Of a DNA stretch of 1,678 nt, positions 875-1,606 are shown piece by piece. Each line of letters starts with the position of its first letter. The stretch's first letter is position 1. Under the pieces are notes generated by a model that did not search any database, was not told where the DNA came from, and saw nothing but the letters and a program-made list of their open reading frames with translations. A program made the position numbers and the translations under genes. This stretch comes from Naegleria gruberi (Eukaryota): the NCBI GenBank assembly GCA_000004985.1, contig GG739349.1. One strand, written 5' to 3'.

Positions 875-1606
875 ATGTCTCAACAACTTGTTCAAATCGA
901 TAGAGAACATCTCAAGAAGCTCTATGCTGAAGAAGAAGCTTTGTTCTTGAAGAATCACCCAAAGTGTCGTGACGCCTTTGAAAGAGCTAAGAACTCTCTT
1001 CTTGATGGTGTACCAATGCACTGGATGAAGAAGTGGACTGGTGGTCATCCATTGTTTGTTAAACAAGCTAAAGGAGGTCACTTTACCGACTTGGATGATG
1101 TTAAATTTATCGATTTTTGCCTTGGTGATACTGGTTCCATGACTGGCCACTCTCCTGATGTTGTCGTTGATTTTGTTTCAAAACAATTAAATAATGGTAT
1201 TACTTATATGTTACCAAACGAAAATGCAATTTGGGTTGGTGATGATTTAAAGAAGCGTTTTGGTCTTCCATACTGGCAAGTTGCTGTTTCTGCAACTGAT
1301 GCCAACAGATTCACTTTACGTATTGCTAGACATATTACCAAACGTCCAAAGATCCTTGTTTTCAACTATTGCTATCACGGAACTGTTGATGAAGCTTTTG
1401 TCACCCTTGCTGATGATGGTGTTACTGCTGAATGTCGTGCTACAAATATTGGTCCACAAACCAATCCAACAAATACCACAAAGGTTGTTGAATTTAATGA
1501 TGTTGAAGCTTTGGAAAGAGCTTTGGCTCCTGGTGATGTTGCTGCTGTTTTGTGTGAACCAGCCATGACAAACATTGGTATTGTTCTCCCACACCAGGAT
1601 TTTTAG
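875..1606 (+). CDS. Aminotransferase segment A. This is the track ORF, which ends at a premature TAG created by the frameshift.
   Basis: The ORF ends ...GIVLPHQDF*. Family consensus predicts V-P-x-x-G-[FY]-L here. The in-frame stop therefore lies exactly where conserved sequence should continue. Confidence 0.8.
   Translation: MSQQLVQIDREHLKKLYAEEEALFLKNHPKCRDAFERAKNSLLDGVPMHWMKKWTGGHPLFVKQAKGGHFTDLDDVKFIDFCLGDTGSMTGHSPDVVVDFVSKQLNNGITYMLPNENAIWVGDDLKKRFGLPYWQVAVSATDANRFTLRIARHITKRPKILVFNYCYHGTVDEAFVTLADDGVTAECRATNIGPQTNPTNTTKVVEFNDVEALERALAPGDVAAVLCEPAMTNIGIVLPHQDF

Follow-up and report, generated by a model that had tools for sequence, protein, structure and literature searches.

A one-base frameshift near the end of an orphan Naegleria gruberi scaffold, probably a base-calling or assembly error, interrupts a predicted PRK07046-type transaminase gene

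Gene models split by an indel on small scaffolds of draft assemblies have a recognisable appearance: the scaffold is tiny, a single-base indel lies close to its end, an intact duplicate exists and the coding sequence is free of decay. Scaffolds below 2 kb in such assemblies usually have very few reads behind them. The locus described here resembles these cases in each respect, and differs from them in that its scaffold also carries a CAP_C gene that is unannotated elsewhere in the assembly. The interrupted gene itself can be compared to the bacterial PRK07046 subfamily of transaminases, which has E-P-x-M-T-N-x-G-I-x-x-P-x-P-G-[YF] in common with the Naegleria copies. Most of the bacterial members, however, read [DE]-P-G-Y-H where the Naegleria copies read Q-P-G-F-L, and the Naegleria host is eukaryotic. 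The true HemL proteins (glutamate-1-semialdehyde 2,1-aminomutase, TIGR00713) are of the same fold class, Pfam PF00202.

The window, i.e. the whole stretch of DNA analysed (1678 bp), is a complete orphan scaffold of the Naegleria gruberi NEG-M draft assembly. This assembly is a fragmented draft, reported in two papers to comprise 40.9 Mb in 1977 contigs and 784 scaffolds with an N50 of 160 kb. Two ORFs are found on the + strand, at positions 302-790 (162 aa) and 875-1606 (243 aa), and both correspond exactly to NCBI proteins: EFC35336.1 (162 aa) and EFC35337.1 / XP_002668081.1 (243 aa, 'predicted protein'), respectively. The stretch upstream of the first ORF (positions 1-301) is AT-rich (33% GC), with T-rich runs at about 145-165 and no convincing ORF, and presumably represents an intergenic region or the promoter of the CAP_C gene. 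When scanned, the window gave no Rfam match and no tRNA. A literature search on the accession numbers of the window proteins found no mention of them, and one on NEG-M haplotypes found nothing relevant.

The lesion lies towards the end of the second ORF, 85 nt from the scaffold end. Transaminase codons 1-239 occupy positions 875-1591 of the + strand in the original frame, from MSQQ... to ...GIVLP, and are identical to residues 1-239 of a full-length N. gruberi protein, EFC46639.1. The following CA (1592-1593, + strand) represents the first two bases of Gln codon 240, the third base of which is missing. Codons 241-268 (PGFLDKLRELTTKYGTLLIIDETHTISA) continue at 1594-1677 of the same strand, one base out of frame and again identical to EFC46639.1 (residues 241-268), and base 1678, a G, is the first base of Gly269 and the last of the scaffold. 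Read from the ATG at 875 (frame A), the product is 243 aa long and ends with ...EPAMTNIGIVLPHQDF (GIVLPHQDF), followed by a premature TAG at 1604-1606 (+ strand) that terminates EFC35337.1 / XP_002668081.1. The frame starting one base earlier reads PTPGFLDKLRELTTKYGTLLIIDETHTISA over positions 1588-1677. As the last stop codon in this second frame is a TGA at 1555 and frame A closes at the TAG, the switch between frames is confined to 49 nt (1558-1606). The deposited sequence therefore carries a disabling lesion, namely a frameshift followed four codons later by a stop codon.

Given that both sides of the break match EFC46639.1 exactly (239 residues before, 28 after), the continuation in the second frame is not a product of chance. 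When repaired, the 268-aa fragment scores 96.7 bits against Pfam Aminotran_3 (PF00202; cut-off 30.5, E = 1.6e-27) and is predicted to be a class-III aminotransferase. Signs of relaxed constraint were absent: there is no second lesion, the other 267 of 267 residues are those of the intact copy, and GC3 is 0.27 before and 0.29 after the break. Several statements of an earlier note on this DNA thus hold. Frame A stops at the TAG and the -1 frame carries the family sequence, at the coordinates that the note had given; codon bias is intact on both sides and no other degeneration is visible; and the lesion is a deficit of a single base just before the conserved P-G-[FY], since the 23 columns from E-P to R-E-L are free of gaps in an alignment of the 120 best homologs and leave room for exactly one missing base.

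The intact copy resides in the same N. gruberi NEG-M assembly. EFC46639.1 / XP_002679383.1 is a full-length protein of 458 aa encoded on a contig of 782,252 bp, and falls into the same 90%-identity cluster as EFC35337.1. Around the position of the break it reads GIVLPQPGFLDKL (LPQPGFL), with Gln240 in one continuous frame. At the protein level, all 267 comparable residues of the two window frames are identical to this protein. The window overlaps the first 804 nt of the transaminase gene and stops at residue 268, whereas EFC46639.1 continues for another 190 residues past the window end. Because splicing can only remove bases, the presence of Gln in a full-length protein with consensus spacing means that the main scaffold has one base more than the window.

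The identity of the lost base can be narrowed down further. The earlier note had proposed a C lost from the CC doublet at 1594-1595, and His as the restored residue. Insertion of A or G after 1593 yields 268 of 268 residues identical to EFC46639.1, while C or T would encode His and reduce the match to 267 of 268. The comparison with orthologs at the nucleotide level that the note had called for points in the same direction: four orthologous DNAs, from N. fowleri, N. lovaniensis and two Naegleria-like metagenomic contigs, all run through the site in a single frame with CAA (Gln) at the break (4/4). They read CC[A/T]-CAA-CC[A/T], and alignment places the single gap of the window inside CAA. All 15 Gln codons of the window are likewise CAA, and CAG is never used. 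Taken together, the Gln of EFC46639.1, the CAA of the orthologs and the exclusive use of CAA in the window indicate that one A of the AA doublet was lost; judged from these sequences, the missing base is almost certainly the A at the third position of the Gln codon, between 1593 and 1594. The location proposed in the earlier note was accordingly correct to within at most one base, but neither the base nor the residue was: a lost C is not borne out, and His, which EFC46639.1 does not have at this position, occurs in 0 of the 120 homologs in this column. Among the metagenome contigs scanned, neither the lesion site as it stands nor a version lengthened by one base had a match (0 matches).

The same 120 best homologs define how far the motif around the break is conserved. 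Pro265 is found in all 120 sequences, Pro267 in 110 and Gly268 in 119, while column 266, which corresponds to the lesion codon, is occupied by D, E, Q, A, N or K. Column 269 contains Tyr in 96 and Phe in 24 sequences, and column 270 contains His in 95 and Leu in 20. The consensus given previously, G-[IV]-x-[VL]-P-x-x-G-[FY]-L, is therefore approximately correct, although strong conservation is limited to P-x-P-G-[YF] and the last position of the consensus is mostly His (95/120) rather than Leu (20/120). P-G-F-L is the Naegleria form of this more general motif. The N. lovaniensis ortholog deviates once more in reading MPQPRFL (within 6676-6741 of its locus), with AGA where 119 of the 120 homologs have Gly (GGA); this Gly-to-Arg change is a true substitution of an almost invariant residue or else stems from an error in the N. 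lovaniensis assembly.

The gene is deposited under the name 'glutamate-1-semialdehyde aminotransferase', which is not supported by the profile searches, as EFC46639.1 reaches only 230.5 bits against the HemL equivalog TIGR00713 (cut-off 527.3). Scored as a whole protein against PRK07046 / NF005453 (NCBIfam), it obtains 644.2 bits at a cut-off of 425, and the gene is hence predicted to encode a PRK07046-type transaminase, not a true HemL. Structural matches follow the same order: the best PDB match is the 'probable aminotransferase' 5ykr/5ykt (6e-130 over the full length for 5ykr), and the PDB entries for GSAM score between 1e-46 and 1e-49. Beyond Naegleria and two metagenomic sequences, the closest named proteins belong to Bacillales and Chloroflexi (61-68% identity), which suggests an old transfer of the gene from bacteria to Naegleria that would be common to N. 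gruberi, N. fowleri and N. lovaniensis. The putative catalytic Lys is located at about residue 288 of EFC46639.1, in TIGKAIGSG. The 243-aa stump lacks both this Lys and the Asp of IIDETH, and even a repaired window would stop short of the Lys because the scaffold ends.

The CAP_C gene, a neighbour that lies outside the lesion, is complete and encodes the 162 aa of EFC35336.1 / NAEGRDRAFT_82381 (302-790, + strand; Pfam CAP_C). An in-frame TAA is present at 284-286, 5' of its ATG. The product consists of the C-terminal (CARP) domain of cyclase-associated protein alone, without the N-terminal CAP domains; it matches Pfam CAP_C at 5.2e-54 over profile positions 3-154 of 157, and its best PDB matches are the CAP C-terminal domains 1k8f and 6fm2. 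An ortholog from a Naegleria-like metagenomic organism has exactly the same length (162 aa), at 75% identity; a scan of the metagenome contig collection with the CAP_C protein returned no relative. In the protein collection, we found no second annotated CAP_C copy of N. gruberi; the only one found is that on the 1.7-kb orphan scaffold.

The adjacency of CAP_C and transaminase is specific to this scaffold and absent from N. fowleri, N. lovaniensis and the metagenomic relative. In the first two species, the transaminase gene is located 3' of a gene for a Ser-rich protein of 305-318 aa, which has no Pfam hit, and 5' of a glutaredoxin/GST-like gene. The metagenomic relative has a PARG-like gene directly after CAP_C, and its transaminase gene is located on a different contig. 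A search for orthologs of the gene that precedes the transaminase in N. lovaniensis and N. fowleri returned sequences from these two species only, and none from N. gruberi.

How, then, did the base disappear? We consider it probable that the frameshift is a base-calling error or an error of assembly or consensus building, the possibility that the earlier note had listed first and that is favoured by the orphan status of the scaffold, the closeness of the lesion to its end and the intact copy in the same assembly. When bases were called or the consensus was built, CCA-CAA-CCA would have lost an A from its AA doublet and become CCA-CA-CCA, after which the annotation pipeline would have entered the shortened ORF of 243 aa as a 'predicted protein' of its own. 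Loss of one base from a two-base run, as seen here, is a typical undercall. Moreover, indel errors at low-coverage contig ends generally far outnumber frameshifting polymorphisms in conserved coding sequence, which counts against a real deletion, as does the identity at the amino-acid level of all 267 other codons, which would require any real event to be extremely recent. The scaffold itself may belong in or beside a gap just upstream of the transaminase on the 782-kb scaffold, a placement that would fit everything. A real deletion is a rather unlikely alternative: the window would then represent either a second haplotype, on which a heterozygous null allele has arisen very recently, or a partial duplication of very young age that brought the 5' part of the gene to a site beside CAP_C. 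Either way, the window copy would be non-functional and the enzyme would be supplied by the intact copy. In its favour, the scaffold failed to merge with the main scaffold, which hints at a larger difference, since a fragment differing by one base would normally merge. Given that CAP_C is single-copy in the annotation and its adjacency to the transaminase was seen in none of the three relatives, the scaffold could also be a distinct locus or haplotype; the different neighbours in the relatives are weak evidence, however, as N. gruberi and N. fowleri reportedly have little synteny in common. The reported heterozygosity of NEG-M and the nature of the truncated product, a clean null without the IIDETH Asp and the putative catalytic Lys, are both compatible with a deletion. 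The lesion, its position, the intact copy and the unshifted relatives can all be read directly from the sequences; that the missing base is an artefact rather than a real mutation is our inference.

Explanations that would leave the gene functional as deposited fare considerably worse. Programmed -1 frameshifting at CAC-C, or slippage of tRNA-Phe on T-TTT-TAG, could in principle produce the full-length enzyme: the frame overlap does contain a U-rich run that leads into a stop codon, and a -1 shift after CAC would restore the spacing of the family. Yet the shift window (1558-1606) contains no slippery heptamer of the type X-XXY-YYZ in the zero frame, and a stimulatory structure was not detected in the 84 nt that remain between the break and the end of the scaffold, where the predicted fold (MFE -9.5 kcal/mol, z = +0.32) is no better than that of shuffled sequences, 116 of 200 of which were at least as stable; only 72 nt separate the TAG from the scaffold end. 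In addition, the in-genome copy EFC46639.1 and the orthologs from N. fowleri, N. lovaniensis and the metagenomes are read in a single frame with the extra base, and neither route yields the Gln found in all Naegleria copies. The UUU-UAG route would also replace the near-invariant Pro267 (110/120) and Gly268 (119/120); the note had already remarked that this product lacks the conserved Gly and had judged slippage on T-TTT-TAG much less likely than the other readings, a judgement that the heptamer, folding and conservation tests turn into an effective refutation. With no heptamer, no stable structure and no shift conserved in the in-genome copy or the four orthologous loci, we reject recoding as highly improbable. 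Even less credible is a 20-nt micro-intron from the GT at 1578-1579 to the AG at 1596-1597, which would join the flanks as ...TNIG|FLDKL.... The two dinucleotides have this spacing and their removal would shift the frame by the required amount, but splicing would cost the protein six residues (IVLPQP) that EFC46639.1 and every homolog retain, and there is no gap in this region across the 120-sequence alignment. At 20 nt, the intron would also be far from the median of 80 bp reported for the sister species N. lovaniensis, and we reject it on the basis of the gap-free alignment and its length. Reading the TAG as a sense codon was likewise dismissed: frame A continues as the unconserved ISSVNSLLNMVLF up to a TGA, whereas the other frame matches the family perfectly.

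With an error as the preferred reading, the finding matters mainly for database quality and has no bearing on translational recoding. EFC35337.1 / XP_002668081.1 / UniProt D2W6G6 most likely duplicates EFC46639.1 in truncated form and should not be regarded as a gene, paralog or pseudogene in its own right; as a spurious paralog, it probably makes the gene count of N. gruberi too high. A true deletion would instead amount to a heterozygous loss of function or a nascent pseudogene of a bacterial-type gene, and would have little biological consequence, given an intact copy beside one recent null allele or partial duplicate. The truncated 243-aa ORF is currently carried as an independent 'predicted protein' in RefSeq (XP_002668081.1), UniProt (D2W6G6) and EukProt.
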